Shown in pieces: positions 2,760-25,101 of a stretch of 64,000 bases of DNA. Under the pieces are notes generated by a model. It did not search any database. It had not been told where the DNA came from and saw only the letters and a list, made by a program, of their open reading frames with translations. The stretch covers positions 1,265 to 65,264 of the forward strand of contig JAZDOQ010000027.1 in NCBI GenBank assembly GCA_043798445.1. Reading direction: 5' to 3'. Each line of letters opens with the position of its first letter. Positions within the stretch are counted from its first letter, which is position 1. Position numbers and translations under genes: made by a program. The DNA is from Candidatus Gottesmanbacteria bacterium. GTDB lineage: Bacteria > Patescibacteriota > Microgenomatia > UBA10105 > UBA927.

Positions 2760-4010
2760 TTAAGTATTTGTTGTTTGTCCAAAAATTTGTTTTGACAGGT
2801 TTTCTCTATCTATATCCCGCTTGCTTTTTGCGCCGATTTCAATTGCGGGAACAATGGTGCCATTCAGGGTAACTTGTGCCCGGTCAAATGTATATCGTCC
2901 TCTTGGATCTTCAACCTCGATGAAATACACACCATTAAGAAGTTGTGTGGATGCCGCAAATTGACCAATCTTATTGGTTTTTAGCGCGCGAAGAGGAACC
3001 CCATCTTTATCTCGTACGGTAACAAGAACACCGGGAAGCAGTCCTCCCTGGTTGTCTTTAATAATTCCGGTGACAACGTTGGTGAACGTGGTTAACCGAG
3101 GAAGGCCGGCTCGGGCCGCTGCGTCAGGCATAATAATTTTTACCGTTGGCCCCTGTGATTTTGGAGTAGTGATAATCCCGGCTGATTGGGCAGGTTTTTT
3201 GGGAGCCTGAGGAGTAATTGATTGTTTTTTCATGGTGAGAAGCTGTTCTTCTGTTTCACGTTTTTGTTTCATCATTTCTGTCATTTCTTTTTGCAGTTCC
3301 AACACGCGCGTTTCTGCTTGTGCCTTGTCGCCCAGTTCTGTTTGAAGTGACGCAATTTTATTTTGGAGGGCATCAAGTTCCGGATTTTTTTCTTGCGGCA
3401 CCACAGAAACAACGGGTTGTATCAACTGAACATGTGGAGCTTGAGTGGTGGAAGCGGCAACGCTCAATTTAGGTTTCGGGAATATGTCATCAACCCAGGA
3501 AAATAAGGAATCAAAAAAAGATTTTTTTGGTTCAGTGGGCGTTTGTGTGTAGAACCCCTGAAGTGTGGTTGCAATCGGCGTACCAGCTGTTTGTGTTGGT
3601 GGAGGCGGGGCAGAAGATAAAGCCGTACGTTGTGTTTGTGTTGTGGCGGTGACCGGATTTATCTGCGGTTCAGCCCTTGGTTGGGTTCTGTGCCACACAA
3701 ATTGTGTTGGGGCGTAGACGCTTTTTAGAAATGATAATACCCATACATCCATGGGACGTTCTTCAATGGGAACAAATGCAAACCCGATTCCCATAAGTCC
3801 AAACAATACGGTGAGCGGCCAGGTAAAAAAGAATGGAAGGGGAAGGATATAGGATAAGTAAGCGAGTATGGCTCCGGCCGCAAGGTACCCAAACTGTTTA
3901 ATCGTCATGTCGCCGATTAAACGGAACTGAAACGTCGTGACATTTTGCGGGACAGGATGTTGTTCCATAAGGACACAATCTATTGTAAAGAAGAACGACG
4001 GATCTCGCAA
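2760..4010 (-). CDS. PrgI/VirB3-like membrane hairpin fused to a Pro/Thr/Gln-rich linker, a coiled coil and a C-terminal carboxypeptidase-regulatory-like beta-sandwich domain
   Basis: The N-terminus MTIKQFGYLAAGAILAYLSYILPLPFFFTWPLTVLFGLMGIGFAFVPIEERPMDVW has two TM helices typical of PrgI/VirB3. The middle is low-complexity PT-rich followed by the coiled coil LQTELGDKAQAETRVLELQKEMTEMMKQKRETEEQ. The C-terminus GVLVTVRDKDGVPLRALKTNKIGQFAA...GVYFIEVEDPRGRYTF is CarbopepD_reg-like. Confidence 0.55.
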   Translation of the reverse strand: MRDPSFFFTIDCVLMEQHPVPQNVTTFQFRLIGDMTIKQFGYLAAGAILAYLSYILPLPFFFTWPLTVLFGLMGIGFAFVPIEERPMDVWVLSFLKSVYAPTQFVWHRTQPRAEPQINPVTATTQTQRTALSSAPPPPTQTAGTPIATTLQGFYTQTPTEPKKSFFDSLFSWVDDIFPKPKLSVAASTTQAPHVQLIQPVVSVVPQEKNPELDALQNKIASLQTELGDKAQAETRVLELQKEMTEMMKQKRETEEQLLTMKKQSITPQAPKKPAQSAGIITTPKSQGPTVKIIMPDAAARAGLPRLTTFTNVVTGIIKDNQGGLLPGVLVTVRDKDGVPLRALKTNKIGQFAASTQLLNGVYFIEVEDPRGRYTFDRAQVTLNGTIVPAIEIGAKSKRDIDRENLSKQIFGQTTNT

Positions 4011-4100: not shown

Positions 4101-6278
4101 ATGGACCGCGATTTTGTCGTTGTTGAAATAAAAAACACGAGAGACAGTGAAGAAACCCCACTAGCGATGGAACAAGTGTTTGCTGCAATGGGAAGCGGAA
4201 AACCACAAGGGTTGATGTCTCGATTGTTACAAGGAAAATCAAAAGAATCATGGTTGAGTTTTGAAATTGTTGCCGTTGATAGTGCAATTCATTTTTATTT
4301 GGTAACGACAAAAACCACACGTGCGTACATTGAAAGTCAATTAACTGCACAATATCCAAAACTAGCCATAACAGAAACAAAAGACGTAATATCAAGATTA
4401 TTTGAAACAGCACGTGCTGTAACACAGCTTGTGCTTGCGAGCCCCTTTTATTACCCATTAAAAACTTACAAAGACGTCAGGGACATTGATTTGCTCTCAA
4501 GTGTGCTTGGGTGTCTGGCAAAATTACATAAAGATCAGTCAGCAGCTATTCAAATTCGCGTTGTTCCAGCGGGGGCTTCATGGCAACGTCATGCCGCATC
4601 CGTTGTTTCGCACGGTATTCCAGACCCGTCGTTTCCAGGAAGAACAAAAAATCATCCCCAAGCCAGGCTTATAGAAGGAAAAACAAACCAGGTGGGGTTT
4701 CAAACAACAATTCGTGTTGTTGCGACGGGCGCCTCGCAAGAAGCAGCGCAGTCAACACTGCAAACAGTTGCGGGAACGTTTGGCGTGTTTGGGCTCGGTG
4801 AAGGAAACACGCTCGTAACGAATAAACCTGCATTTTGGCAACGGAAAAAACTTGAAACCGCGATGGTGGACCGATCCGGAGCGTTTGCTCCGAAATTTCA
4901 TGTGTTTGGTGCGTCAGAACTTGCCTCTCTTTGGCACCCCCCGGGATTACTGCTTTCAGCGATCAAAAATATTTCCTGGGGAGCAACATTAACCGGAGAA
5001 GCGCCAGAGAATCTTCCGATTGCAACAGACAACGAAGAAGACAAAAAAAAGATAAACTTTTTTGCGAGAACCGAGTTTAAGAACAAACCAACAACGTTTG
5101 GGATTAAGAGTGATGATCGTAGGAAACACTTGTATGTGGTGGGAAAAACAGGAACGGGAAAATCGACCATGATTGCAAATATGGCAATTAATGACATGCG
5201 AAATCACGAAGGAATGGCAGTTGTTGATCCACACGGAGATTTAACAGACGCGCTTCTTGACTATATTCCGTCATTCAGGCTTAATGACATTGCGTATCTT
5301 GATCCTTCAGATGTTGCACACCCGTTTCATTTAAACCCGCTGGAACTGAAAAATCCTGCACATAGAGAACTTGTTGCATCAGGAATCGTATCTATTTTTT
5401 ACAAACTCTATCACTACTCATGGGGACCGCGACTGGAATATATTTTGCGTAACTGTATTTTGACACTGCTGTACGTTCCAAACTCCACACTGTTGGCAAT
5501 TCCAGAGATTCTCACAAATGATAGATATCGGGAAAAAATAGTGATGCAGCTTCCGGATCAGGTACTGAAAAACTTTTGGATTAATGAATACAACAAGTTA
5601 TCTCCACAAATGAGAAGTGAATCCATCATGCCTATTTTAAACAAAGTAGGGCAGTTTCTGTCTTCACAAACCATTCGAAATATTGTTGGCAGCCCGAAAT
5701 CAACGATTGATCTTGAAGAAATGATGAACAAGGGAAAGATTATTCTTGTGAATTTGTCTCAAGGAAAACTCGGGGAAGACAACAGTGCGCTTCTCGGAGC
5801 CATGATCATTACCAAAATCCAACTTGCCGCCATGAATAGGGTGTATGAGGCAGAACACGCACGTAAAGATTTTTACTTATACGTTGACGAGTTTCAAAAC
5901 TTTGCAACAAGCTCGTTTATTAAAATCCTTTCTGAGGCACGAAAATACCGATTGAATCTTACGCTTGCCAATCAATATATCGGACAAATTGATGAAGACG
6001 TGCAAAACGCTATTTTTGGCAACGCAGGCTCAATTGTTTCTTTTTGTGTTGGCGCAACGGACGCCAGGCCCTTGGCGCGGGAGTTTGGACTCAAATATAA
6101 AGAAGAAGAGCTAGTGCAGCTTGGCAATTATCAAATTGTTCTCAAGCTTTCCATTGATAATCATACCTCAAGTCCGTTTTCAGCAACGACACTACCACTT
6201 CCACGGTCTCATAATCAAAGTCGTGAAAAAGTAATACGCGCAAGTCGTGAGCGGTATACGAAAACAATTGAGAAGTAA
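4101..6278 (+). CDS. virD4: VirD4/TraG/TraD-like type IV coupling-protein ATPase, without N-terminal transmembrane segment
   Basis: Walker A LYVVGKTGTGKST, VDPHGDL motif, and Walker B FYLYVDEFQNFATS. A ~300-aa N-terminal soluble domain has no obvious hydrophobic helices. Divergently oriented to the VirB4/PrgI genes. Confidence 0.7.
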   Translation: MDRDFVVVEIKNTRDSEETPLAMEQVFAAMGSGKPQGLMSRLLQGKSKESWLSFEIVAVDSAIHFYLVTTKTTRAYIESQLTAQYPKLAITETKDVISRLFETARAVTQLVLASPFYYPLKTYKDVRDIDLLSSVLGCLAKLHKDQSAAIQIRVVPAGASWQRHAASVVSHGIPDPSFPGRTKNHPQARLIEGKTNQVGFQTTIRVVATGASQEAAQSTLQTVAGTFGVFGLGEGNTLVTNKPAFWQRKKLETAMVDRSGAFAPKFHVFGASELASLWHPPGLLLSAIKNISWGATLTGEAPENLPIATDNEEDKKKINFFARTEFKNKPTTFGIKSDDRRKHLYVVGKTGTGKSTMIANMAINDMRNHEGMAVVDPHGDLTDALLDYIPSFRLNDIAYLDPSDVAHPFHLNPLELKNPAHRELVASGIVSIFYKLYHYSWGPRLEYILRNCILTLLYVPNSTLLAIPEILTNDRYREKIVMQLPDQVLKNFWINEYNKLSPQMRSESIMPILNKVGQFLSSQTIRNIVGSPKSTIDLEEMMNKGKIILVNLSQGKLGEDNSALLGAMIITKIQLAAMNRVYEAEHARKDFYLYVDEFQNFATSSFIKILSEARKYRLNLTLANQYIGQIDEDVQNAIFGNAGSIVSFCVGATDARPLAREFGLKYKEEELVQLGNYQIVLKLSIDNHTSSPFSATTLPLPRSHNQSREKVIRASRERYTKTIEK

Positions 6279-6303
6279 AGGTCAATCCTCTATACTTAGC
6301 TTC

Positions 6304-6858
6304 ATGAAGATAGGACTTTTGGGAGGCAAATTTAACCCACCACACCTGGGACACATTTTTATCGCGCAGCAATGCCTGGACTTCGGGGGATTTGATGAGG
6401 TGTGGTTTGTGCCTAATTACGGTCAAAGTTTTCATGAGCCCGTTGCGCCCGTTGAGGACAGGCTCGCAATGACAAAGTGTATGACCTTGTCTCATACCAG
6501 GGTTTCGACAATTGAGATTGATAATACGCTAGATGGGAAAACCATTCATTTGTTGCCATTTCTTCCAAAGGAACACACACACACCTTTATCATTGGATCT
6601 GACCAACTCGCAACATTCCATCTGTGGGGGGAGTACAAACGATTGTTGGCAAACCTTCCCTTTATTGTTTTTCCAAGGTATGGGTATCCAAACGAGCCCA
6701 TATATGAGCATATGCAGGTATTGTCACATCCATCTCTCATTGCAACAAATATTTCATCAAGTAAAATTAGAGAGCGGGTGAGACTAGGACTCCCCATAGA
6801 AAACTTTGTTCCTAAGGGTGTTGCGGAATATATAAAAGAACATAAATTATATTTATGA
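6304..6858 (+). CDS. nadD: nicotinate-nucleotide adenylyltransferase
   Basis: MKIGLLGGKFNPPHLGHIF (the (H/T)xGH nucleotidyltransferase motif) and C-terminal ISSSKIRE. The start was moved to the ATG at 6304; the track ORF starts at 6247. Confidence 0.85.
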   Translation: MKIGLLGGKFNPPHLGHIFIAQQCLDFGGFDEVWFVPNYGQSFHEPVAPVEDRLAMTKCMTLSHTRVSTIEIDNTLDGKTIHLLPFLPKEHTHTFIIGSDQLATFHLWGEYKRLLANLPFIVFPRYGYPNEPIYEHMQVLSHPSLIATNISSSKIRERVRLGLPIENFVPKGVAEYIKEHKLYL

Positions 6859-7628
6859 AACAGATTGATCCGGAAAAAGAAACAGAGCGGATTATTGATT
6901 TTGTAAAACAGACGTTTCAAACTGCGGGGTTTACCGATGCAGTTATTGGTCTTTCGGGTGGCGTTGACTCCGCAGTTTCCTTATGTCTTGCGACTCGTGC
7001 ACTGGGTCTAGAACACGTATATCCCATTCTTTTGCCATATGGACCTTTAAATACGCGGGGAGTCTTGGACGCGATGGAGTTAATTGAAAAAATAAAAATT
7101 CCAATGACACACGTTGTGCGGATTGATATTAAACCAGCAGTTGATGCGATTGTTAGAATTGATCCATTTATGGATTGTATAAGAAAAGGAAATATCATGG
7201 CTCGTGTCCGCATGACCTATTTATTTGATCAAGCCAAAAAACACCATGCGCTTGTCATGGGAACGGAAAACAAAAGTGAGCATGAACTTGGATATTTTAC
7301 ACGGTTTGGTGATGAGGCAAGTGATGTAGAGCCGATTGTGCATTTATACAAAACACAAGTGGTCGAACTTGCCAGGTTTTTAGAAATTCCTCAATCAATT
7401 ATTATGAAACCACCATCAGCTGATCTCTGGCCAGAACAAACAGACGAGGGGGAGTTGGGATTTACATATAAAGAAGCAGATGAAATTCTTTTTCAGTTGA
7501 TTGATGGAAAGATGGGAAAAGAAGAAACCTCAAATATCTTTGAAAAAGATATGGTAATAAAAATTAGTACCCGCATGAAACAAAACAGATTTAAAAACAA
7601 GCTTCCTTATTCGTTAAGTATGCTATAA
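6855..7628 (+). CDS. nadE: NH3-dependent NAD+ synthetase
   Basis: PP-loop IGLSGGVDSAV, 257 aa, overlapping nadD by 4 nt (translational coupling). Confidence 0.85.
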   Translation: MKQIDPEKETERIIDFVKQTFQTAGFTDAVIGLSGGVDSAVSLCLATRALGLEHVYPILLPYGPLNTRGVLDAMELIEKIKIPMTHVVRIDIKPAVDAIVRIDPFMDCIRKGNIMARVRMTYLFDQAKKHHALVMGTENKSEHELGYFTRFGDEASDVEPIVHLYKTQVVELARFLEIPQSIIMKPPSADLWPEQTDEGELGFTYKEADEILFQLIDGKMGKEETSNIFEKDMVIKISTRMKQNRFKNKLPYSLSML

Positions 7629-7643
7629 TTTTAGAAAATACCT

Positions 7644-10600
7644 ATGGGAGAAAAAGAATCATCAGGAAAAAAAGGTAAGGAAATTGAAGAGATTGCGCGC
7701 GTGGTAGGTAAAGCCGTTGCTCCAAAAGTCGAAACCGTTTCTAATACATCCTCTCCAGAAAAATCGTCAAAAAAAGTAGAAAAAAAGGGTAAAAAATCAG
7801 TAGAGGTTCCAAAATCAAAACTTCAGCCATTGGAAATATCAGTAGAAGGAAAATTTGAAACGTTAGCGCCAAGGAATGAGGCCATAGTACACGTCATTGA
7901 ATCTTCAACAAAGGGAGAATTAAACCGCATTTTACATGGAAAAGTTCCCAAAGATGTTCAAATGATTAATATGATGGATAGGGTGGCAGAGCTGATGGAG
8001 GGTGGGGGTACACCAGATGATGTAAAGAATTTTTACATGCATAATAGAAGTACTGTCGCAGGATTGGAAGGAGAATTGCAGGTGTGCGGAGAGATTCTAA
8101 ATTTAGGAGATCGGTATCCATCTGGAGAGGCAGCATATCAATCGGTTCTTGCAGAAGGTGGGACCGGTACCCCAAGGGCTGCTACAAAACCGTTCTATGA
8201 AAATTATACTTTTAAAGCAAGTGGCGAGGCGGAAAAAAACGTGACTCTTGCAAGAAAATCAGCGGGTGAAGAAATTGTGGACTCTGAAACCGCAAGAAAT
8301 ATTGCAAAACATTTTGAAGATCGATTATTGAAAGGGGATTTTGCAGGAGACGAGACGGAAATGCAGCGAATGATTGCTGACATTCGAAGTAAGGGGAATG
8401 AATTGCGATATGGGGCAAATGAAGAACATTTTTCAAGCATTTATTTATCCAAAGAGGAGCTAGCGTTATTAATTCAAAATCCAATGTTGTTTTTTATGAT
8501 GAAATTGGATTTTATGGAGCGGGAGCTTCACGATCCGAATGCGCCATTATTTAAGGCTTCCATGAATCGTCTACAGCTTGCCCAGGAGTTATTTGGGAAT
8601 GAAAATTTCGATATTACGCGTCTTCATTCCAATGCAGAACCAGGAGAATTAAAAATGCTTTTGAATGATGTGCAGAAAGAAATGCATTCACCGATGAAAT
8701 CACAAGTTTCTGAAATGGTCGATTCACGTATTACCGCAATGTTTACCACGCACGATTTAAACACCTCAACAGACGCAGCCAAATTCGCCGAAAACATGAA
8801 AAATAAAGGAGACCGTCCATACTTATTCGCTCAAACGAGTGAGGGTGGATTAGTTGGAGAATTCAAGGGGCGATTGGAAGCCAATTTACGTCAAGTAACA
8901 CCGCAAGGTTTGCGGAGGCGGGAGTTTGTGGACACGTATCATCAAACCCAAGCAATAAATTTGACTATTAATCAATTTGAAGAAGAATATCCATTACTGC
9001 ACAGGCAAAAAATTATTGACTATTTATTATATTTTCAACAGCCAAATGCCGATGGGACGAAAGAATTATCGCAGGATATCATTAATTATGTTGATGGAAT
9101 GAAGCACGAAATAATTAAATCAATCGTTCGAAGATCAGAAAACGCCATGCGGTTGGAAATGCGTATGCCAGCTCTCATGACCCGAGGAATTGGTGCACAC
9201 GAGTATATGAGTATTAAAGGTGGTTCAAGTGATGTCATGCAAAAATTTACACTTGAATCAACAGACGTTGTTGAAGAAGGTGCTGCAGGAGCACTACTTC
9301 CACGCGAATTTAAACTCCGTAAATTTTTTAAAGGAGACCCCAACAGCATTATTGAACGAACCTTGTGGAATCATGCTGCAAGATTTACTGCGAATTTGGA
9401 CCCCATGGTAAAAAGAGAAACAAACGCAGTTGTAGACCAGCTTCTTCATGATTTGAATCTGCCTGCAAATGGAACAGAACTACAGAAATCCCTCAGAACC
9501 CGTGCAATAGAACGTACATATTACATGTTAAAAATGGATAATAAAGGTCGTGAGACAGAAGAGATTTTTAATAAGATGAAACACACATTAATAGAGCAAG
9601 CGCTAAAAAAAGGTCTTAGTGAAGAAGATGGGAAAAAAGCATTGAATAATTTAAAAAACCCGAATTTTCAACAACTCCTTATCGATCAAGCAAACTCTAT
9701 GAATTCAGATGGGAGCTTTAATGAATTAGTAAAAACAGAAGTTGGTGGAAATGTGTTGCAGATGCGATTATTTCGTGCATACCTATTTTTAGATAGTTTA
9801 TGGCGAAGCGATACATATTTAAAATCACTCCGTACTGGACTTCAGTTTGGTGGCGACAGATCTGTCGGAACAGCCCTCCACGCATCCGGTCTAGCCGTAC
9901 ATTTTGGAGTGTTTAAGGACCATGAAACTAAAAAGGAAGCAATACAAAATTTATCTAGAACAATTAAAAAAACAATAGAGCTTCGTCCGCAAGGAGTTGC
10001 AGAAATGCTTATTGATGGAGAGGACAGAAAGTTTAATACATGGGCGTTTGATAAAAAAAGAGAGGAATATGCATTTCCGGAAGATTGGATTGCTGTTCTT
10101 GACCGACGGTTTATTATGACGAACCAGATGATTCAACGGCAAGATTTGCCGGCAATTCGATATCAGGATTCAAAAACATTTGTGGATTTAGCAGGGAAAG
10201 TGGGGACGCCAGAATATGAAGCAATAAAGACAAAAGCTACATTGACTGCAGAAGCATTTAAGAATTTGCCCTTAGAGAAGCAAGATGAACTTAACAAAAA
10301 ATTTGCATCCCTTCTTGATGTGCATCATGAACATGATGAGTTTGAAGGCGCAATCAAGAAATTGATGAAGGAATCGCCCGATGTAGAAGAACAAATGGCG
10401 CGAGATTGGGTGGAATGGCGCTTGGTTCAACAATTTGAAGCAGCTCAAAGCATTTTTACTATTCAACTGCAGGATGTTGTTATTCAACCGGATGAAGTGA
10501 ATCCTCCTCCTGGTCAGGAAAAGAGCAAAGGAATAAAAATTACTCCAATTAACGATATAAAAACATATTTTGAAGATATGAAGGGATTACATGATGAAAT

Positions 10601-11465
10601 TTCAAAGGATGAAGGTGACTATGTGAAACAACTTGGCTCCATACATTACGCCCGGCAATATTTGAACATTCGATGGATTGATGATAACCCACAATATCTG
10701 ATGGAAAATCCAGAACAATTTAAAGATCGGTATACGCAGGAATACACACTATATGCGAAAGCAAATGGGACAGAGGTAAAGCCTTATACTACACTTGAAA
10801 CAAGGGAGGGTATGGGGCCTGCCGCAAAACATGGGAGAGGTGTTGCAGATTTGGCAAAAGCAATGGGTTCAGCAGACAGTTGGATGTCGCTTAAAGGAGG
10901 ATTTTCAAATGATGATAAAGAATTCGATAAGCTGATAATTGAATGGAGGGATTCAATGGTGGGATACCAAGGATGGGATCCTGCAACAGAAGGAATCGGA
11001 GAATGGTATGCGGCGCACACAGATAATATGCAAACAATTCCTGGAAGAGAAAAGAGGCATGACTCCTCTGTTGATCGTGAGGCAAGAGGTCCAATTGGTA
11101 AATCTGAAGATTTACAGATGGGTGCAGAACGTTGGGAAAAGTTGAGTGGCGTGCTTGGTAATTTGGATGACATAAATCCCGAACTTGATGATAAAGTAAA
11201 AGATGTTTTGCGTATTTCAACATTACATATTGGAAAATTAAATACACACATCTCCTGGAGTTCTATGGCAGAAAAGTTTCCACCACTCAAGACGTTTTTG
11301 GGTGGAAAATTATATAGATTTTTAAATAAAAATTTTGATCTTGGGTTATTCCAGTATAAAATGCGAAACGTTGGGCTTTACGCAGCAGTTTTAGGTCTTA
11401 TTTATGCCGGAAAAATGGTTGAAAAAGGAACAGAGGATTCTTCAGGTGGCGGTAAATCAAAATAA
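7644..11465 (+). CDS. 1273-aa orphan protein, highly charged (K/E/D-rich), single C-terminal hydrophobic anchor
   Basis: Long uninterrupted ORF with no recognisable catalytic motifs. The C-terminus is VGLYAAVLGLIYAGKMV followed by a GGGKSK tail. It sits between the VirD4-like/nadDE unit and the convergent VirB6-like gene. Confidence 0.6.
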   Translation: MGEKESSGKKGKEIEEIARVVGKAVAPKVETVSNTSSPEKSSKKVEKKGKKSVEVPKSKLQPLEISVEGKFETLAPRNEAIVHVIESSTKGELNRILHGKVPKDVQMINMMDRVAELMEGGGTPDDVKNFYMHNRSTVAGLEGELQVCGEILNLGDRYPSGEAAYQSVLAEGGTGTPRAATKPFYENYTFKASGEAEKNVTLARKSAGEEIVDSETARNIAKHFEDRLLKGDFAGDETEMQRMIADIRSKGNELRYGANEEHFSSIYLSKEELALLIQNPMLFFMMKLDFMERELHDPNAPLFKASMNRLQLAQELFGNENFDITRLHSNAEPGELKMLLNDVQKEMHSPMKSQVSEMVDSRITAMFTTHDLNTSTDAAKFAENMKNKGDRPYLFAQTSEGGLVGEFKGRLEANLRQVTPQGLRRREFVDTYHQTQAINLTINQFEEEYPLLHRQKIIDYLLYFQQPNADGTKELSQDIINYVDGMKHEIIKSIVRRSENAMRLEMRMPALMTRGIGAHEYMSIKGGSSDVMQKFTLESTDVVEEGAAGALLPREFKLRKFFKGDPNSIIERTLWNHAARFTANLDPMVKRETNAVVDQLLHDLNLPANGTELQKSLRTRAIERTYYMLKMDNKGRETEEIFNKMKHTLIEQALKKGLSEEDGKKALNNLKNPNFQQLLIDQANSMNSDGSFNELVKTEVGGNVLQMRLFRAYLFLDSLWRSDTYLKSLRTGLQFGGDRSVGTALHASGLAVHFGVFKDHETKKEAIQNLSRTIKKTIELRPQGVAEMLIDGEDRKFNTWAFDKKREEYAFPEDWIAVLDRRFIMTNQMIQRQDLPAIRYQDSKTFVDLAGKVGTPEYEAIKTKATLTAEAFKNLPLEKQDELNKKFASLLDVHHEHDEFEGAIKKLMKESPDVEEQMARDWVEWRLVQQFEAAQSIFTIQLQDVVIQPDEVNPPPGQEKSKGIKITPINDIKTYFEDMKGLHDEISKDEGDYVKQLGSIHYARQYLNIRWIDDNPQYLMENPEQFKDRYTQEYTLYAKANGTEVKPYTTLETREGMGPAAKHGRGVADLAKAMGSADSWMSLKGGFSNDDKEFDKLIIEWRDSMVGYQGWDPATEGIGEWYAAHTDNMQTIPGREKRHDSSVDREARGPIGKSEDLQMGAERWEKLSGVLGNLDDINPELDDKVKDVLRISTLHIGKLNTHISWSSMAEKFPPLKTFLGGKLYRFLNKNFDLGLFQYKMRNVGLYAAVLGLIYAGKMVEKGTEDSSGGGKSK

Positions 11466-11470
11466 ATACT

Positions 11471-12928
11471 TTACTTTCCTCCTACCGCTTTTGTAATATT
11501 CTCACTCATCTTCTCCATTTGTTTTTTCGATACAGCCATTTGGAATAGTTGCATTCCTATTTGTGTTGGTGCAGCAAGCATTCCTCCAAGTTCACCGATT
11601 CCCCCCTGGAGCCCTGGTTTTGGTTTAAGGGCCTCGTTAATCATTTTTCCGACGTTTGGAATCATGAATAGAATGCCTAATGATATAAGCGCTCCAATAC
11701 TTGTTGCGTTGTTTACAAAAAGTCCAGCATATGGTGGATGCCATAGGGTACCATCAGTATTTGATAGCTGCATAAATACTGCAGAAAGAAGAAAGAGAAC
11801 ACTTGCTGCTGGAAAAATGAGAATGTTGGCGATAAGTCCTCGAAACCAAGAATCAAACGCTTTACTTCCGGGAACCGCCTCAAGCAGAAGCTGAAAAGGA
11901 GCAAAAACAAGCGCAATGATTATTTTAATATATGTGCTTAAAAAGAAAACAAAGAGACGAATAAACAAAAGGAGCAATCCGATGCTAAATAGCACTCCTA
12001 TCAATGCAGGAGCCAAACTTAACACAAGAAAAGCGATTGCAACAACGGGCATTGAAATAGATGCAATAGCAAGGCCAATTCCACCCAGCGCTAAAAAATT
12101 AGCACCAGCGATTTCCGCCGGATCATGAATACCAAGGATAATTCTATAAAATAATTGAGATTCGGGAATGTTTGCAAACACCTGGTGCCATAGTGTTCCG
12201 TCAGTGATGGAACCAGTAGGTCCTTGAGGAAGCATGTTTGTTGATTGAAACACACTTCCAACAAGGGCAATTAATAGATACATAACATCAATTGCAATAC
12301 CACCGATTGCATCTGAAAAAGTTACTAAGAGTAAAGTGATGACAATTTTTGGGAGAGCATTTTGTACCGTAACAACGGTTTTTGGATCAATTTTTTTTCG
12401 AAACATTACCATGAAACCAATTGTTACCATAATGAGTGCAAGAACTACATAGGCGATGTCGCGGAATACTTTCCATACAGGAAGAAGAGCTGTTAATCCC
12501 GAAAAACCAATGCCTTGTGCGTAAGCCTGTTTTGGAATAAAGCCAAGCGTTTGTCCAATATCCTGAACAAATGCATACGTTGAAGCAGGGGGTGTTATAT
12601 ACATGCTTGTTATGTATGAAGATATCGAATTAAGAGCGCTCGCCTTTAATAATTTTTGATTGTAAGGAGAATTAAGTGACGCGTCACTTGTGGTTATGCC
12701 GGGAACCGGACCAAGTACGCGTCGTATAAAGTCTGAATACGTATTGGTATTGACATTTGACACATGCGCTGCTGCATTAACATCGCCACTGGTTGCCGCT
12801 GCCTCCATGCTTGCTGCATACCCCGTATCAACCCAAGAAGTGGATTCTGCTTGTGCTGCATGAATGGGCGAGAGAAGACAAAAAGAAGCAAAGACAATCA
12901 AAAATAGTAATATAAACACCCGTTTCAT
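11471..12928 (-). CDS. VirB6/TrbL-like polytopic inner-membrane protein
   Basis: Signal peptide MKRVFILLFLIVFASFCLLSPIHAAQA, a ~150-aa extracytoplasmic region, then about 7-8 hydrophobic helices. It lies directly upstream (minus strand) of the pilin paralog array. Confidence 0.45.
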   Translation of the reverse strand: MKRVFILLFLIVFASFCLLSPIHAAQAESTSWVDTGYAASMEAAATSGDVNAAAHVSNVNTNTYSDFIRRVLGPVPGITTSDASLNSPYNQKLLKASALNSISSYITSMYITPPASTYAFVQDIGQTLGFIPKQAYAQGIGFSGLTALLPVWKVFRDIAYVVLALIMVTIGFMVMFRKKIDPKTVVTVQNALPKIVITLLLVTFSDAIGGIAIDVMYLLIALVGSVFQSTNMLPQGPTGSITDGTLWHQVFANIPESQLFYRIILGIHDPAEIAGANFLALGGIGLAIASISMPVVAIAFLVLSLAPALIGVLFSIGLLLLFIRLFVFFLSTYIKIIIALVFAPFQLLLEAVPGSKAFDSWFRGLIANILIFPAASVLFLLSAVFMQLSNTDGTLWHPPYAGLFVNNATSIGALISLGILFMIPNVGKMINEALKPKPGLQGGIGELGGMLAAPTQIGMQLFQMAVSKKQMEKMSENITKAVGGK

Positions 12929-12966: not shown

Positions 12967-13323
12967 TTATGGCACCATCTGGATGCGAAATATTGTTAAG
13001 TTTTCAACCCCTGTTACTTGTTGGATAACAAGAAGAATAAGGTAGCTTCCTACGAGAACCGCAAGCCCAATGATGGCATTAGTGATCGTTCCCTTAGCTT
13101 TTTCCAGTTTTTTTTGATCTCCCCCGGAAAAAAGGAAGGTAAAACCTCCCATAACAAGCATGACAAATAATACAACCCCGGCTAACGCTGTAACAGCTTG
13201 AATAATGTTTGAGAACAAAGAGGCGAGCGATCCGATGGTTGCAACATCAGCAACTGCATCTGCGGGCAAATCACTTGCTTTTTCAAGATTAGTCCAGGTT
13301 GGAATTTGTGCAAGTATATTCAT
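12967..13323 (-). CDS. TrbC/VirB2-like T4SS pilin family protein (paralog 1)
   Basis: 118 aa with an N-terminal leader, a hydrophobic helix, the conserved GGDQKKLEKAKGTITNAIIGLAVLVGSYLILLVI motif and a second TM helix. Confidence 0.6.
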   Translation of the reverse strand: MNILAQIPTWTNLEKASDLPADAVADVATIGSLASLFSNIIQAVTALAGVVLFVMLVMGGFTFLFSGGDQKKLEKAKGTITNAIIGLAVLVGSYLILLVIQQVTGVENLTIFRIQMVP

Positions 13324-13346
13324 ACTATAATAAGTATATCAGATAT

Positions 13347-13375
13347 CAAAAACCCCGCATACGCGGGGTTTTTGT
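13347..13375 (-). terminator. bidirectional rho-independent terminator hairpin CCCCGCATACGCGGGG flanked by A5/T5
   Basis: Perfect 6-bp GC stem at 13353-13368 with T-runs on both sides, immediately downstream of pilin paralog 2. Confidence 0.7.
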
Positions 13376-13392
13376 ATATACTCTTATTTTTC

Positions 13393-13731
13393 TTAATATG
13401 GTTTTGGAAGGTTGATACCTTGTGAACCAATAATATTGACGCCTAAGAAACTCTGCACAAGCATCATAATTGCCCATGCCGCCCCGACGATAATAAGTCC
13501 GACAATTGCATGTGTAATTTTATTTCGTGCTGTTTCCATGGCTGCTTTGTCTCCACCTGAGGTAATCCACTGAAGACCGCCTAAGATAAGAAACAAAAAT
13601 GCCATAAGTGCTGCGAGAATAAGGAGTGTTCCGACGACCGCACTGACAAGTTGTCCAATATCAGTAATACGGACACCTGCCGGCTGTGGAACCGTGATAT
13701 CAGCTGCAAATAATTTTTCTAACATAAACAT
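13393..13731 (-). CDS. T4SS pilin family protein (paralog 2; followed by a strong terminator, candidate major pilin)
   Basis: LILGGLQWITSGGDKAAMETARNKITHAIVGLIIVGAAWAIMMLV; 112 aa. Confidence 0.6.
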   Translation of the reverse strand: MFMLEKLFAADITVPQPAGVRITDIGQLVSAVVGTLLILAALMAFLFLILGGLQWITSGGDKAAMETARNKITHAIVGLIIVGAAWAIMMLVQSFLGVNIIGSQGINLPKPY

Positions 13732-13782
13732 TCCCCCTTTTTAGAATAGATTTATTATACGATATATTTTTGCATTCAGCAA

Positions 13783-14127
13783 TCAACCCTTAAATGAAGG
13801 GATTATTAATGCTTTAATATCAATTCCCAGGAATTGTCCGACAAGGGTGAAAATTGCATACGCAGCGGCAACGATAACAAGCCCAACTAATGCGTTCGTA
13901 ATTTTATTCCGCGCTTGTTCAAGTTGCGCCTTTTCTCCACCCGATGTAAGCCATTGAATACCGCCCATGATCAGGTAAAGAAGTGTAAGAAGAAATGCAA
14001 AAATAAAAAGGAGTCCAACAATATTACTAATGAGACTCCCTATAATTGTTCCACCTCGTTCCGTGCTGCCGGAGCCAAGCGCGGGGGGAAGTACCGGATT
14101 TCGTAATTCTGCAAGTGTGTGATTCAT
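13783..14127 (-). CDS. T4SS pilin family protein (paralog 3)
   Basis: IMGGIQWLTSGGEKAQLEQARNKITNALVGLVIVAAAYAIF. The start was moved to the ATG at 14125-14127 (MNHTLAEL) to avoid a 125-nt overlap with the upstream gene. Confidence 0.55.
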   Translation of the reverse strand: MNHTLAELRNPVLPPALGSGSTERGGTIIGSLISNIVGLLFIFAFLLTLLYLIMGGIQWLTSGGEKAQLEQARNKITNALVGLVIVAAAYAIFTLVGQFLGIDIKALIIPSFKG

Positions 14128-14131
14128 ATTG

Positions 14132-14512
14132 TTATTTAAATTGAATAAGTTCTCCGACCGACGATGGCAAAAGAATGGTGTCCCAGCCAAAAAATTGTCC
14201 GGCAAGGGCAAGAATTGCCCAGCCGGCAACAACAACAACAAGTCCAATAAACGCATTGGATATTTTGTCGCGCGCCTCTGTTAGCTTTGCTTTGTCGCCA
14301 GCCGCAGTGATCCAACTGATGCCCCCCATGGTAACCTGTATAAGAAACCAAATAGCAGCAACAATAGTGAGAAGTCCGATAATCGCCGAGATGGCATTGG
14401 TAAATGCGGAGAATGCGGTTGGACCAGTAAATGTTGTTCCCCCGAAAGGACCGAGTCCTGCGTCTGGACCCGTGCCACCAATCTTTCCAAGATCAACAGC
14501 AAGTAGTTTCAT
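14132..14512 (-). CDS. T4SS pilin family protein (paralog 4)
   Basis: VTMGGISWITAAGDKAKLTEARDKISNAFIGLVVVVAGWAILA; 126 aa. Confidence 0.55.
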   Translation of the reverse strand: MKLLAVDLGKIGGTGPDAGLGPFGGTTFTGPTAFSAFTNAISAIIGLLTIVAAIWFLIQVTMGGISWITAAGDKAKLTEARDKISNAFIGLVVVVAGWAILALAGQFFGWDTILLPSSVGELIQFK

Positions 14513-14516
14513 ATAG

Positions 14517-14882
14517 TTATTTTCCTGGTCCGTAAATTATCGGATTAAGCATAAACATCGGATTACCGAACAATAAATAGCCAAATAATGCGGCAATGAC
14601 AAAAGATCCGGCAATGATGGCAAGACCCAAGAGTGTCTGCCAGATTTTGTCCCATGCTTTAGTAAGCGCTTTTGTGTCTCCGCCCGCGCTCATATAGCCA
14701 TATCCGGCAAGAATAAGATTAATAAACGCATAGATGCCTGCAACGGCGAAAATTAGACGGAGAATGTTGCTAAAAAACGGAACTAACCCCACATCCACAT
14801 TTCCATATTTGTTAAGAGGGTTTTCAATTTTTCCGATGATATCGGTTGCATCCTTGGCGTATATGCGTTCAATAAATGTCAT
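14517..14882 (-). CDS. T4SS pilin family protein (paralog 5)
   Basis: GYGYMSAGGDTKALTKAWDKIWQTLLGLAIIAGSFVIAALF; 121 aa. Confidence 0.5.
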   Translation of the reverse strand: MTFIERIYAKDATDIIGKIENPLNKYGNVDVGLVPFFSNILRLIFAVAGIYAFINLILAGYGYMSAGGDTKALTKAWDKIWQTLLGLAIIAGSFVIAALFGYLLFGNPMFMLNPIIYGPGK

Positions 14883-14883
14883 A

Positions 14884-15210
14884 TTATTTCGGTAAAATAG
14901 TCACTCCGGTAATAATTTCAATTATTTGTATAATCCAATACGATGCAAAAATAAGAACAAGACCTGTTATGGCTGAGGTGATTGCCTGTTTGCTTTGTTC
15001 GGCCTTTTTTGCGTCGCCACTACCTGCTGATACTATAAAGCTAAAACCGCCAAAAATCAATAAAACAAGAAAAATAACACCGGCAATTACAAATGCATTT
15101 TTAAGAAGAACATCAACAAATGCACCAATGGTTGGGAAAGATTTGGCCGGAGCGAAGGTTTGACCAATGTCAACTGTTGGTGCTGGAGTAGCGGCAAAAA
15201 TGCGTTCCAT
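14884..15210 (-). CDS. T4SS pilin family protein (paralog 6)
   Basis: IFGGFSFIVSAGSGDAKKAEQSKQAITSAITGLVLIFASYWII. The start was moved to the ATG at 15208-15210 (MERIFAAT). Confidence 0.5.
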   Translation of the reverse strand: MERIFAATPAPTVDIGQTFAPAKSFPTIGAFVDVLLKNAFVIAGVIFLVLLIFGGFSFIVSAGSGDAKKAEQSKQAITSAITGLVLIFASYWIIQIIEIITGVTILPK

Positions 15211-15278
15211 AGTAAAAAGTGTACGAAATATCAGGAAAGAACACAAGCGGGGCTTTATGGTATAGTAAGGAAGCTTGT

Positions 15279-15818
15279 ATGGACGACGCAAAATTAATTT
15301 CCCGAATACTTGCACGTGATGAACGGGCCCTCCACGAGTTTTATGTTGCGTACTCCCCAAAACTTCGAAGGTTTATCCAAACAAAAGTTCAGAATCCAAA
15401 TGATTGCGAAGATATCTTCCAAGATACCCTGTATGCGTTTTTGGATGCAATCCGTGATTTTCAAGGCAGCTGTCAGATGAACACGTTTTTGCAATCAATC
15501 TGTAACCATAAAATCATTGATTATTACCGGAAAAAGAAGCTACGAAACATTGTATTTTCTCAATTTCCTGAAGTTGATGGTCTTATTTCGCCGCTTCTCA
15601 ATCCTGAAGAAGCGCTTGACGAGATCGTATTGCGGGAAGAATTACATAAAACATTAAACAAGCTGCTTCCACAATATAAGCTCGTATTATATGCGCGGTA
15701 TATCTTAAATATGCCGGTTGTTGAAATTGCAAAGAAATTTGCCACAACCCTAAAAGGCGCAGAATCCATGCTGTTTCGAGCAAAAAAAGCATTCGCTAAA
15801 AATCATGAACACGTTTAA
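15279..15818 (+). CDS. ECF-type RNA polymerase sigma-70 family factor
   Basis: Region 2 (EDIFQDTLYAFLDAIRDFQG) and region 4 (VLYARYILNMPVVEIAKKFATTLKGAESMLFRAKKAF). The start at MDDAKLISRI (ATG 15279) is likely. Confidence 0.75.
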   Translation: MDDAKLISRILARDERALHEFYVAYSPKLRRFIQTKVQNPNDCEDIFQDTLYAFLDAIRDFQGSCQMNTFLQSICNHKIIDYYRKKKLRNIVFSQFPEVDGLISPLLNPEEALDEIVLREELHKTLNKLLPQYKLVLYARYILNMPVVEIAKKFATTLKGAESMLFRAKKAFAKNHEHV

Positions 15819-16035
15819 GTACGATAAATTTGTTGCCAGGTGGAAAGAAACAACAGAACTTGCTCCTCAAGGTGTTGGTCCATTGACTGGTGTGTATAAA
15901 CGGTTAACGCACCGGTTAAAAATTATGCCTATCCCGACGCTTGTCCTTGTCAGCCTCGTTCTTGTATCTGGTGTTGTTTTTTTCCTCGGTCCTTCTATTG
16001 CGTCTTTTGTGACATTTCTCCAACGAGGGTTTTAA
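15805..16035 (+). CDS. small membrane protein, candidate anti-sigma factor
   Basis: 76 aa overlapping the sigma gene 3' end by 14 nt; C-terminal TM helix IPTLVLVSLVLVSGVVFFLG. Confidence 0.3.
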   Translation: MNTFKYDKFVARWKETTELAPQGVGPLTGVYKRLTHRLKIMPIPTLVLVSLVLVSGVVFFLGPSIASFVTFLQRGF

Positions 16036-16058: not shown

Positions 16059-16676
16059 ATGAGGGGATCAATCCTACGTGGGTGTATTGGATTTATACGA
16101 TCATCAATCGGACTCATAACCACGCCGTATGAAACATATCGCCGGATTGTGAATCACGGATCGTTATGGGAGCTGGTTCCGCTCGGCGTGTTGCTTTCTT
16201 GCTATTTTGCCATATCTTCGTTAGTTAAAACTGCAGCGTTTCGTCCATACATATTAACAAAGCATTTTATTCTTCTTGCTATGGTTGTTCTCGCAACATA
16301 TTCCATAACTGTATTGTTATTATGGGGAGTTTCAAAGCTGTTGCGTGGAAAGGGTGACATCCGCTCATTGGGGATTGCGTGGGGATATACACTCATTCCA
16401 ACATTATTATGGTTTTTGGCAACATCACTTTTATACGTGATATTTCCTCCACCAAGAACAGGAAGACCATTGGGAATACTGTTTAGCGCACTTTATTTAT
16501 CATTTTCAACGGCGCTCTTTTTTTGGAAAGCCATGCTTTCATATTTGACACTTCGTTTTGGCATGCGGCTTGATTTGTGGAGGATTATTGCCGTGTTTTT
16601 TATAGTTGGAGGCGTGATGGCAATATATAGCATTGGGATGTATCGGTTGGGAATATTTAAAGTGCCGTTTATATAA
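16059..16676 (+). CDS. polytopic membrane protein (Yip1-like fold suspected)
   Basis: 205 aa with five hydrophobic helices; no catalytic motif. Confidence 0.3.
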   Translation: MRGSILRGCIGFIRSSIGLITTPYETYRRIVNHGSLWELVPLGVLLSCYFAISSLVKTAAFRPYILTKHFILLAMVVLATYSITVLLLWGVSKLLRGKGDIRSLGIAWGYTLIPTLLWFLATSLLYVIFPPPRTGRPLGILFSALYLSFSTALFFWKAMLSYLTLRFGMRLDLWRIIAVFFIVGGVMAIYSIGMYRLGIFKVPFI

Positions 16677-23864: not shown

Positions 23865-24203
23865 CTACTTAAATGTATCTCCGATAGCCGTAATACCAAA
23901 GACAATTCCTAAAAGTTGTGTAATCCAATAAGCCAAAAAAATAATAACAAATCCAACTACTCCATAAGTAAGTGTTTGTTTCCCCTTTTCCATTTTTTTA
24001 GCATCTCCAGCACTGGTAAGAAGTGTGAATCCTGCACTAATAATCATGATAAGGAGCACAATACCCGCTATGGGGAGTGCGAATTTATATATATTAGAAA
24101 GAATAGTACCGATGGTAACATTTTTATCACCCAGTGGGCCAACTAGATTAGGAGTTCCAGGAAGAGTTAATTTTTGTGCGAGTAAGTGATCCATATTATT
24201 CAA
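23865..24203 (-). CDS. T4SS pilin family protein (paralog 7)
   Basis: IISAGFTLLTSAGDAKKMEKGKQTLTYGVVGFVIIFLAYWI; start overlaps the upstream gene stop by 8 nt. Confidence 0.55.
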   Translation of the reverse strand: MNNMDHLLAQKLTLPGTPNLVGPLGDKNVTIGTILSNIYKFALPIAGIVLLIMIISAGFTLLTSAGDAKKMEKGKQTLTYGVVGFVIIFLAYWITQLLGIVFGITAIGDTFK

Positions 24204-25101
24204 ATCCTGGAATTCTTAATATTTTAACCCCAATTAATTGTAGGAGAAAAATTGAAAAGATGATAAGAAGAAGTCCTGTGATTGCTGCACTGATCAGTTC
24301 TTTTCCTGCGTTAAGTTTTTCTGGGTTTCCAGCAGACATCATTATTTGCAAAGCGCCGAAAAGAATAAGAAGAAATGCTATTCCTCCAGCTATACCGATA
24401 CCAAAAGGAAGAAACGTATTAATTATTCCAGAGGGTGATGCATCAATGCATCCAATTGCGGTCCATACTTTTTTTTCAGCTTTCATACAATCATCACAAG
24501 CTTCTTTTTGAGGAGATATGAAAGTATTGCAGACATAACCAGCCGAGGCTGGTTGTGTAGGTGTATTAGGACATCCTGCCTTTGATGTACAACATTTATA
24601 ACTTGAGCCTGGGCATAAGTGTATATAACTTGAATAATCAATGTTTGAGCCAGCGATAGTAGGGGGACAGCCAGTAAATTTAAAGGGATCTCCATAGACA
24701 CATTTATACGCTGGCGTTGGCGGGAATGGTGGACATCCCGTCTTTGGATCGCAACATTTTTTTGGATTGAATCCAGGACAATTTACATATCCAGATTTAC
24801 TACATACGCTATCAAATCCAATAATTCCCACGTCGTCTATACATTTTTTAATTGGAGTTGGTGAGGCGTTGTTAGAAATACAAGAACATCCTGCAGTAGC
24901 GCATGTAGAGATTGTGCCGGCACAACGAGCTGTTGTCCCAGTGGGGCATTTGTTCATTGTAGCATCTACTTCACACGAAAGATCGCCAACGCCATAATGG
25001 CTGACATTTTTACATTCACACGTTTGTGCAAAAATTTTTGTCGGATTTTGAAAAAGAACGACAAGAAGAAAAGCAAAGATAAATAAAATTAGTTTTTTCA
25101 C
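24196..25101 (-). CDS. secreted Cys-rich protein with a C-terminal T4SS-pilin domain (candidate minor/tip pilin)
   Basis: Signal peptide MKKLILFIFAFLLVVLFQNPTKIFAQT, then ~200 aa with about 27 Cys and an internal repeat (KKCCDPKTGCPPFPPTP / YKCCTSKAGCPNTPTQP). The C-terminus LQIMMSAGNPEKLNAGKELISAAITGLLLIIFSIFLL is a pilin module. Confidence 0.55.
   Translation of the reverse strand: MKKLILFIFAFLLVVLFQNPTKIFAQTCECKNVSHYGVGDLSCEVDATMNKCPTGTTARCAGTISTCATAGCSCISNNASPTPIKKCIDDVGIIGFDSVCSKSGYVNCPGFNPKKCCDPKTGCPPFPPTPAYKCVYGDPFKFTGCPPTIAGSNIDYSSYIHLCPGSSYKCCTSKAGCPNTPTQPASAGYVCNTFISPQKEACDDCMKAEKKVWTAIGCIDASPSGIINTFLPFGIGIAGGIAFLLILFGALQIMMSAGNPEKLNAGKELISAAITGLLLIIFSIFLLQLIGVKILRIPGFE

Follow-up and report, generated by a model that had tools for sequence, protein, structure and literature searches.

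Six individually conserved T4SS_pilin genes, with one candidate major subunit, directly upstream of a probable VirB6 homologue in Candidatus Gottesmanbacteria

Tandem arrays of pilin genes belonging to type IV secretion systems (T4SS) have already been published for Patescibacteria, the candidate phyla radiation (CPR) (Wang 2023; Quinonero-Coronel 2025). The array studied here is a member of that kind. It comes from a metagenome-assembled genome (MAG) of Candidatus Gottesmanbacteria, class Microgenomatia, and occupies positions 12967-15210, on the minus strand, of a stretch of 64,000 nucleotides (nt), called the window below. The relevant passages of a 2025 survey (PMC12102498) count 441 arrays with 2-11 pilin genes each, which are most abundant in Microgenomatia and Saccharimonadia and have a mean identity of 25% and a maximum of 54%, and cite the VirB2 paralogs of Bartonella and Anaplasma phagocytophilum, regarded as serving antigenic variation or variable binding to host cells. 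In the passages on Southlakia epibionticum ML1 (PMC10633639), SEML1_0014-0019 are PF18895 proteins of a T4SS cluster in which a series of predicted pilins is essential; by transposon sequencing (Tn-seq) the rows SEML1_0014, 0017, 0018 and 0019 are each essential and a separate pilin, SEML1_0024, is dispensable.

According to these passages, the locus in the window is similar to that of ML1 in its PF18895 proteins, in having six divergent tandem pilins within a monoderm-type cluster with VirB4, PrgI and VirB6-like proteins, and in the existence of a further pilin elsewhere in the genome. It differs in class (Saccharimonadia in ML1, Microgenomatia here), in the coupling protein (none recognised in ML1, a VirD4-like gene in the window) and in that essentiality is known for ML1 only. 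With the surveyed arrays it shares six tandem genes in a T4SS genome and a low identity (23-58% over 91 core columns); the survey passages treat the arrays as variable and suggest host-range versatility, whereas we found six fixed groups and a fifth gene with an expression cassette of its own. Several VirB2-family genes in tandem within a T4SS locus are also found in Bartonella and Anaplasma, but in the present array the copy number and the order do not vary, and neither recombination tracts nor a pattern of recent lineage-specific duplication were observed. The fixed six-group structure, the cassette of the fifth gene and the site directly upstream of a probable VirB6 homologue are additions of the present analysis, and no description of them was present in the passages of the published array papers retrieved by term search.

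An earlier note on this DNA had read six consecutive minus-strand pilin genes of 108-126 amino acids (aa) at 12967-15210, and all of them were recovered as open reading frames (ORFs). They were named g1 to g6 in order of transcription, g5 being paralog 2 of that note:

14884-15210, minus strand: g1, pilin paralog and first gene of the array (108 aa; PF18895 29.3 bits; orthologous group in 58 loci)
14517-14882, minus strand: g2, pilin paralog of the most divergent group (121 aa; 1 nt after g1; 60% within-group identity)
14132-14512, minus strand: g3, pilin paralog (126 aa; 4 nt after g2; N-terminal tail motif GLGPFG)
13783-14127, minus strand: g4, pilin paralog (114 aa; 4 nt after g3; N-terminal tail motif NPVLP)
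13393-13725, minus strand: g5, pilin paralog and candidate major subunit (110 aa; PF18895 35.3 bits; alternative start at 13731)
12967-13323, minus strand: g6, pilin paralog (118 aa; PF18895 42.6 bits; a VirB6-like gene follows 38 nt further on)

From g1 to the VirB6-like gene the intergenic gaps are 1, 4, 4, 51-57, 69 and 38 nt. The longest ORF of g4 reaches 14256 and overlaps the next gene; the limits 13783-14127 were taken. The probable start of g5 is the second ATG, at 13725 (MLEKLFA..., 110 aa), which is also the start of its orthologues and of the National Center for Biotechnology Information (NCBI) record and gives a 7-nt spacing from the ribosome-binding site AGGGGGA. An exact look-up of the 112-aa version of g5 retrieved no record because the public gene call begins two codons later.

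The claim that these proteins belong to the T4SS_pilin family was confirmed, since all six match Pfam PF18895. Five of them exceeded its gathering cut-off of 26.6 bits (42.6, 35.3, 31.9, 29.8 and 29.3 bits), and g2 (14517-14882) scored 20.0 bits, under the cut-off; g2, as well as a cysteine-rich pilin fusion described below, was placed in the family through its alignment with the paralogs. The cut-off of the TrbC/VirB2 family PF04956 (27.9 bits) was reached by no paralog, the best scores being those of a seventh paralog outside the array (22.3 bits), g2 (18.3 bits) and g4 (13.7 bits), and the remaining paralogs gave no match to it. Pairwise identity over the 91 aligned core columns ranged from 23 to 58%, which corrects the 35-60% outside the core reported earlier. 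The conserved core motif of the same report is present, but it is looser than described, one copy reading AAGD, a second having W where the motif has K/R and a third containing an insertion. By hydropathy and charge, the six groups all show two long hydrophobic helices separated by a short polar/basic loop.

The comparison covered 80 related loci from as many species-level genomes, almost all of Gottesmanbacteria or other Microgenomatia, anchored on the 485-aa VirB6-like protein encoded after g6. Pilin ORFs of the relatives were located with a hidden Markov model (HMM) made from the window pilins, and 58 arrays were complete; unless otherwise stated, the counts below refer to these 58 loci. 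In every locus with enough upstream sequence exactly six pilin ORFs were found on the same strand directly upstream of the anchor, apart from the added copy mentioned below; the gene count was exactly six in 52 loci and the order identical in all. Group-specific HMMs gave the order 1-2-3-4-5-6 in every locus, and truncated loci showed only suffixes of this order. In 345 of 348 cases the closest protein in any other species occupied the corresponding position of the array. Within positions g1 to g6 the core identity averaged 0.53, 0.60, 0.51, 0.49, 0.75 and 0.55, respectively; between positions it was 0.24-0.48. Thus g5 forms the most conserved group (75% core identity versus 49-60% for the others) and is the slowest-evolving member of the array.

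Compared with the window copy, orthologues had an average identity of 47-69%, closer than the paralogs of the same genome, and the median tblastn identities of neighbouring proteins were similar (VirB6-like 41%, PrgI-like 48%, VirD4-like 69%). The closest available relative showed 66% identity in the VirB6-like protein. Each group also conserves a motif of its own in the exposed N-terminal tail, such as GLGPFG in g3, NPVLP in g4 and DIVG..NPL in g2. The check for recombination tracts between paralogs that the earlier note had called for was negative, the longest shared DNA, a direct repeat, being 27 nt at 78% identity. Same-position orthology, identities similar to those of the neighbours and the lack of shared tracts longer than 27 nt indicate that the genes are old, individually kept and not exchanging; judged by these comparisons, the six genes are ancient, individually conserved orthologous groups.

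As a separate observation, an extra g4-like copy lies between g4 and g5 in L065, L068, L072 and L077, all from more distant Microgenomatia. The last three are complete seven-gene arrays (1-2-3-4-4-5-6), and L065, cut at its 5' end, reads 3-4-4-5-6. This was the sole copy-number change among the 80 loci.

The earlier note had suggested that the paralogs other than the major one might be alternative subunits providing antigenic or adhesive variation, and a similar proposal of variation or host versatility has been made for Patescibacteria in passages of the survey (PMC12102498). Interchangeable subunits would agree with the low identity of the paralogs within one array and with the fact that the exposed N-terminal tails are their least conserved part (column conservation 0.36-0.57, versus 0.56-0.91 for the helices and loop). 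However, across 58 species neither the copy number nor the order changes and every copy has a one-to-one orthologue, orthologues elsewhere are closer than paralogs at home, the tails that vary between groups carry their own conserved motifs (GLGPFG, NPVLP, DIVG), and DNA tracts shared between paralogs never exceed 27 nt. In addition, the array pilins of S. epibionticum are reported to be essential, four Tn-seq rows each scoring so in the published passages (PMC10633639), and the hypervariable parts of the present cluster are instead the head of the fusion protein and a 1273-aa protein, both described below. These data speak against the suggestion, and we consider it very improbable.

The sequence signals in and around the array were then read as follows:

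15218-15246, minus strand: candidate promoter of g1, TTGTGT, 17-nt spacer, TACACT (recurring TACACT plus an upstream TTGACA-like box)
13754-13782, minus strand: candidate promoter of g5, TTGCTG, 17-nt spacer, TATAAT (read from the sequence)
13732-13738, minus strand: Shine-Dalgarno site AGGGGGA of g5 (duplex -10.7 kcal/mol)
13347-13374, minus strand: intrinsic terminator hairpin and T-run after g5 (z = -7.4; same position in 15 of 58 loci)
13333-13341, minus strand: candidate extended -10 element (TGATATACT) for g6 and the VirB6-like gene (conserved in close relatives)

Across the related loci median gaps were 4, 3 and 3 nt among g1-g4, and g5 is preceded by a median of 86 nt and followed by one of 67 nt, so that g5 alone has non-coding spacers on both sides. 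The duplex between the Shine-Dalgarno and anti-Shine-Dalgarno sequences had a median of -11.45 kcal/mol for g5 and of about 0 to -3 kcal/mol for the other array genes, and a value of -8 kcal/mol or lower was reached at 72% of the g5 loci and at no more than 4% of those of the other genes. A sigma-70-like promoter, defined by at least 10 of 12 consensus matches within 100 nt upstream, was identified for g5 in 42 of 58 loci, for g1 in 19, for g6 in 14 and for g2-g4 in 0-1. The -10 box of g1 lies 7 nt before the ATG and the extended -10 of g6 9 nt before it. Since the -10 boxes of g1 and g6 are only 5-10 nt from the ATG, leaderless or near-leaderless mRNAs are implied for both. Along the same line, -10-like boxes at 15218-15223, 13333-13341 and 15262-15270 lie 5-12 nt from the ATGs of g1, g6 and a divergent sigma-factor gene, and within the array a leader with a strong ribosome-binding site is found at g5 only.

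In most loci the g5 promoter reads TTGACA, about 12 nt, TTGCGCAA(CAAT), about 10 nt, TATAAT. The element TTGCGCAA is a perfect palindrome, present between the TTGACA and TATAAT boxes of the g5 promoter region in 32 of 58 loci. It was seen in the g4-g5 spacers of L010-L069, e.g., at about 9100-9180 of L040, the equivalent region of the window being 13740-13785. The subclade of the window itself lacks TTGCGCAA and has TTGATTGCTGA in its place. The palindrome may be an operator for a dimeric regulator.

The hairpin after g5, CAAAAACCCCGC-GTAT-GCGGGGTTTTTG (13347-13374), folds with -24.4 kcal/mol in its context (z = -7.4 against shuffled sequence), and folding together with a hairpin scan bore out the earlier reading of a perfect hairpin plus T-run after this paralog. 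It is the sole strong perfect hairpin with a T-run within the 64-kb window (-19.5 kcal/mol, versus -8 kcal/mol for the next best). A standard terminator scan overlooked it, as its A/T-extended stem takes in the T-run. Downstream of g5 a hairpin with T-run was present in 15 of 58 loci, and after any other array gene in at most 3 of 58. The stem sequences differ between loci, and among nine close relatives 5 of 10 stem pairs showed compensatory double changes; the stem covaries and therefore the structure of the hairpin is under selection. A search of the array spacers against Rfam found no known RNA element.

It could be argued that this hairpin is a mere operon boundary, insulator or stabiliser of the mRNA 3' end and that all six pilins are made at similar levels. 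The hairpin is missing from about 43 of the 58 related loci, and the g6 promoter comes directly after it, so that it may only part two transcription units. But where the hairpin is missing g5 still keeps its spacers, its promoter and its strong ribosome-binding site, unlike the other array genes, g5 is the slowest-evolving array member, and the covarying stem indicates selection on the structure. We consider this explanation very improbable. Spacers, promoter, strong Shine-Dalgarno site and terminator together suggest that g5 is a separate, strongly expressed cassette. The asymmetry of the regulatory signals and the conserved terminator structure around g5 are properties of the sequence itself; these signals and the comparison of 58 species (conservation, spacers, Shine-Dalgarno site, promoter and terminator) support the proposal of the earlier note that the terminator-flanked paralog would be the major, highly expressed subunit.

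In the AlphaFold2 model of g5, residues 22-57 and 62-96 form two helices with a predicted local distance difference test score (pLDDT) above 90, and the tails are disordered. Charges are distributed alike in every group: 3-4 K/R fall in the loop and 0-1 in the hydrophobic helices, and the net charge of the N-terminal tail is neutral or acidic. Under the positive-inside rule such a pattern puts the loop on the cytoplasmic side, with the two ends outside the cell. The fusion protein, in which a signal peptide and an exported cysteine-rich domain are joined N-terminally to the pilin domain, likewise places the pilin N-terminus outside. The predicted topology is thus a cytoplasmic basic loop with both ends outside the cell.

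The leader of the array pilins, M-x(0-8)-[LIV][FYL]A-[Q/A] (e.g., 13705-13725 in the window), has no hydrophobic core and resembles the cleavage-site end of ordinary signal peptides of the same organism (...KIFA|Q in the fusion, ...NIYA|Q in a 569-aa protein). Depending on the group it was found in 20-49 of 58 orthologues, some being devoid of it. A long signal peptide with a hydrophobic core was not present in the array pilins, which hold two hydrophobic segments in total and a polar tail of about 20-30 residues. Longer upstream ORFs that would give full signal peptides were considered and rejected, because stops lie just upstream and the orthologues start at the short leader; in g5 and g2 a stop codon 3-6 codons upstream makes any in-frame extension impossible.

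Classical VirB2/TrbC/TraA pilins usually exist as a single copy, have a long signal peptide that is cleaved off, and in many cases undergo cyclisation or acetylation. The proteins of the window share with these pilins (PF04956; T-pilus, F-pilus) the small two-helix hairpin with a basic loop, a VirB4-like protein and a probable VirB6 encoded alongside, and sub-threshold PF04956 matches of three paralogs. They differ in the short leader without hydrophobic core, in the six to eight paralogs, in the monoderm host and in falling short of the PF04956 cut-off. No significant match to solved pilins was obtained. Sets of one major and several minor pilins are found in type IV pili (PilA with FimU-PilVWX-PilE) and in type II pseudopili (GspG with GspHIJK). 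The resemblance to these sets, i.e., one putatively abundant subunit with a conserved operon of paralogs of predicted low abundance having one-to-one orthologues, is one of analogy and not of homology, as fold, assembly machine and signal peptide class are unrelated.

Five of the six array pilins and the seventh paralog scored 20-31 bits against Mbov_0395 of Mycoplasma integrative and conjugative elements and pLS20_p028 (NF045849, NF045890). These scores are under the family cut-offs (40 and 150 bits), and the proteins concerned are single-copy in their conjugative elements. A weak sub-threshold similarity of the window pilins to the N-terminus of TrbL_3 (PF19590) was also observed. Pilin-like hairpins may thus not be entirely lacking in the conjugation systems of monoderms, a point relevant to where the Patescibacteria pilins came from.

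The T4SS context of the array is given by the following genes, the VirB4-like, PrgI-like and VirD4-like ones all lying within 13 kb, with a synteny that is conserved in related loci:

11471-12928, minus strand: polytopic membrane protein, probable divergent VirB6 homologue and anchor of the array (485 aa; 529 homologues)
4101-6278, plus strand: VirD4-like coupling protein (TrwB_AAD_bind 28.1 bits, cut-off 20.5; TraG-D_C 21.6 bits, just under the cut-off of 22)
2760-4010, minus strand: PrgI/VirB3-like protein (PF12666 34.3 bits)
2103-2753, minus strand: TrsD-like protein, like the N-terminal part of VirB4 (216 aa; weak NCBIfam matches; syntenic)
224-2092, minus strand: VirB4-like ATPase, C-terminal part (622 aa; P-loop_TraG 95 bits, AAA_10; syntenic)

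The cluster is a monoderm-type T4SS with a split VirB4, made of the 216-aa TrsD-like protein and the 622-aa ATPase. The 485-aa protein, 100% identical to NCBI V1917_03150, gave no Pfam or NCBIfam match, and its gene is directly downstream of the array in all 58 loci with a complete array. Its AlphaFold2 model had a mean pLDDT of 76, and the top seven Foldseek matches in the Protein Data Bank (PDB) were TrwI/VirB6 chains of the R388 T4SS (best E = 8e-3, probability 1.00). Over these matches E ranged from 8e-3 to 0.4 and the probability from 0.80 to 1.00, with template modelling (TM) scores of only 0.20-0.45 and root-mean-square deviations of 9-16 Å. Judged from this model, the protein is probably the divergent VirB6 of a class in which the corresponding passages of the survey report VirB6 to be scarce (PMC12102498). 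An HMM search for pilin-like segments in the VirB6-like, 1273-aa, PrgI-like and TrsD-like proteins gave nothing significant.

We propose, with a probability of roughly 60%, that the six non-interchangeable VirB2-like pilins build one obligate heteromeric pilus or conduit made mainly of g5. The expression levels, the membrane topology and the existence and composition of the filament in this model are what we infer. Each pilin, about 110-125 aa long, would form a helical hairpin whose short basic loop faces inwards and whose two ends lie outside. A first unit, g1-g4, would be read from a near-leaderless promoter and translationally coupled; with gaps of 1-4 nt, coupling and no ribosome-binding sites, its products are proposed to be made in low, roughly equal amounts. 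A second unit would produce g5 in excess, by means of a near-consensus promoter of its own, a strong ribosome-binding site within a leader and the strong terminator of its subclade. A third unit, g6 with the VirB6-like gene, would be read from the extended -10 promoter immediately past the terminator. By analogy with VirB2, the array pilins probably work from a pool of membrane hairpins, a VirB6 platform and a VirB4 ATPase: the VirB4-powered machine would pull the hairpins out of the membrane at the platform and polymerise them, and the five low-abundance paralogs would take set positions at the tip, at the base or as adaptors, comparable to the minor pilins of type IV pili and type II pseudopili.

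Several data weigh against this proposal. According to the passages concerned of a 2025 review (PMC12857230), observation of a T4SS pilus has yet to be reported for a Patescibacterium. Published arrays have 2-11 genes and some Microgenomatia arrays hold seven, which means that six is not universal. The terminator occurs in only about a quarter of the loci, being missing from the other 43 or so. The promoters, leaderless starts and relative translation of the array genes are putative, as they were derived from consensus sequences, and coupled or leaderless genes of such organisms are not necessarily weakly expressed. Finally, none of the solved pilins matched the g5 model significantly (the best Foldseek hit had E = 3.8), and a profile of the eight pilin domains searched against all PDB sequences retrieved no pilin and nothing significant.

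Some of these data lead to the main rival, namely a non-filamentous role in which the six proteins are stoichiometric parts of the T4SS channel that span the membrane or the cell wall, making up a short stalk or surrounding VirB6 as a hetero-oligomeric ring, with g5 as merely its most abundant component. Passages of two papers describe the related monoderm conjugative T4SSs as having no pili (PMC12102498; PMC10633639), and the lack of observed pili in Patescibacteria points in the same direction (PMC12857230, in the passages mentioned). Helical hairpins build rings too, and the top Foldseek match of the g5 model, which was not significant, is subunit c of ATP synthase. The weak similarity to the monoderm conjugation proteins Mbov_0395 and pLS20_p028, the match of g1 to the TrbL_3 N-terminus and the putative co-expression of g6 with the VirB6-like gene also suit such a part. 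On the contrary, one strong and several weak subunits would be the usual design of a filament and not of a ring of fixed stoichiometry, the sub-threshold TrbC matches point to kinship with the pilus-forming VirB2/TrbC family, and a pilin domain bearing a large exported cysteine-rich head is easier to explain as display on a filament. We therefore regard a channel or stalk as unlikely, though as a possibility to be taken seriously, and keep the g5-based heteromeric pilus or conduit as the preferred explanation.

A more specific arrangement may be considered, in which g1-g4 and g6 form one heteropentameric cap or base layer and g5 the repeating layers, as an ancestral "5 + 1" design. Five-fold symmetry is known for conjugative pili and for VirB5/VirB6 from the R388, F-pilus and T-pilus structures. 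The pentameric layer would match five-fold VirB2-type pili and the VirB6 pentamer of R388 and would replace the missing VirB5 tip pentamer. If it were true, the six-pilin array of Saccharibacteria should be one-to-one orthologous to the Microgenomatia set. We hold this arrangement to be speculative and rather improbable.

The remaining pilins of the window, and the most variable protein of the cluster, are encoded by three genes:

23865-24194, minus strand: small seventh pilin, coupled to the fusion gene (109 aa from the ATG; PF18895 50.9 bits; ORF 23865-24203)
24196-25101, minus strand: pilin fusion (301 aa; signal peptide, cysteine-rich head with 24 Cys, C-terminal pilin domain)
7644-11465, plus strand: fast-evolving cluster protein (1273 aa; no Pfam match; convergent with the VirB6-like gene)

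The seventh paralog and the cysteine-rich pilin fusion, located 9 kb from the array, agree with what had been noted at 23865-25101, both as ORFs and by their HMM scores. The probable start of the seventh pilin, at 24194, is 1 nt past the stop of the fusion gene, and this gene pair also exists in L011, L069, L071 and L076. In the fusion the PF18895 match (26.5 bits, just under the cut-off) falls in the C-terminal 75 residues. Among 120 fusion homologues (P0241-P0360) of 166-368 aa the pilin domain is conserved, all 7140 pairs aligning, and the heads, of about 50 to about 250 residues, have detectable similarity in only 22% of the pairs. The fusion could be an adhesin displayed on the filament. 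In more than 50 loci the slot of the 1273-aa protein is taken by an ORF of roughly 1000-1450 aa, but similarity is almost undetectable: the closest relative, L001, shares 24% identity over 321 aa, and most loci gave no match. By eye, the 1273-aa protein has an E/K-rich N-terminus and no obvious signal peptide. It may be a fast-evolving T4SS substrate or a factor of host interaction. If the system provides adhesive or host-specific variation at all, the fusion head and the 1273-aa protein would, from their sequences, be better candidates for it than the array.

Other genes of the region were also recorded. The NAD biosynthesis genes nadD and nadE (6247-7628, plus strand) lie between the VirD4-like and the 1273-aa genes and are syntenic in 25-45 related loci. 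Divergent from g1 are, on the plus strand, a gene of the sigma-70 family of extracytoplasmic function (ECF) type (15279-15818), followed by one for a predicted membrane protein of 76 aa that might be an anti-sigma factor (15805-16035), and one for a Yip1-domain protein (16059-16676); this group is syntenic in 51-59 of the 80 related loci. Divergent from the pilin fusion, at 25162-26871 (plus strand), is the gene of the 569-aa secreted protein, with a SpoIID-type peptidoglycan-hydrolase domain. This protein could be a candidate for the cell-wall-opening role of VirB1, which passages of the published survey report as missing from most Patescibacteria genomes with VirB2 homologues (PMC12102498). 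Many related MAG records (L001, L003, L004 and others) are titled "uncultured Gammaproteobacteria" or "Pseudomonadales", and one Bathyarchaeia; as they encode a Microgenomatia-type locus, these titles are evidently placeholders or wrong.

The T4SS of Patescibacteria is essential in the sole species that has been genetically tested, and the pilin arrays are its most unusual feature. The present model would turn the vague notion of many pilins into a testable one, in which a major pilin is accompanied by five positional minor pilins and a VirB6 platform. It names g5 as the protein to look for in filaments, and it would shift the search for host specificity to the cysteine-rich head of the fusion and to the 1273-aa protein.

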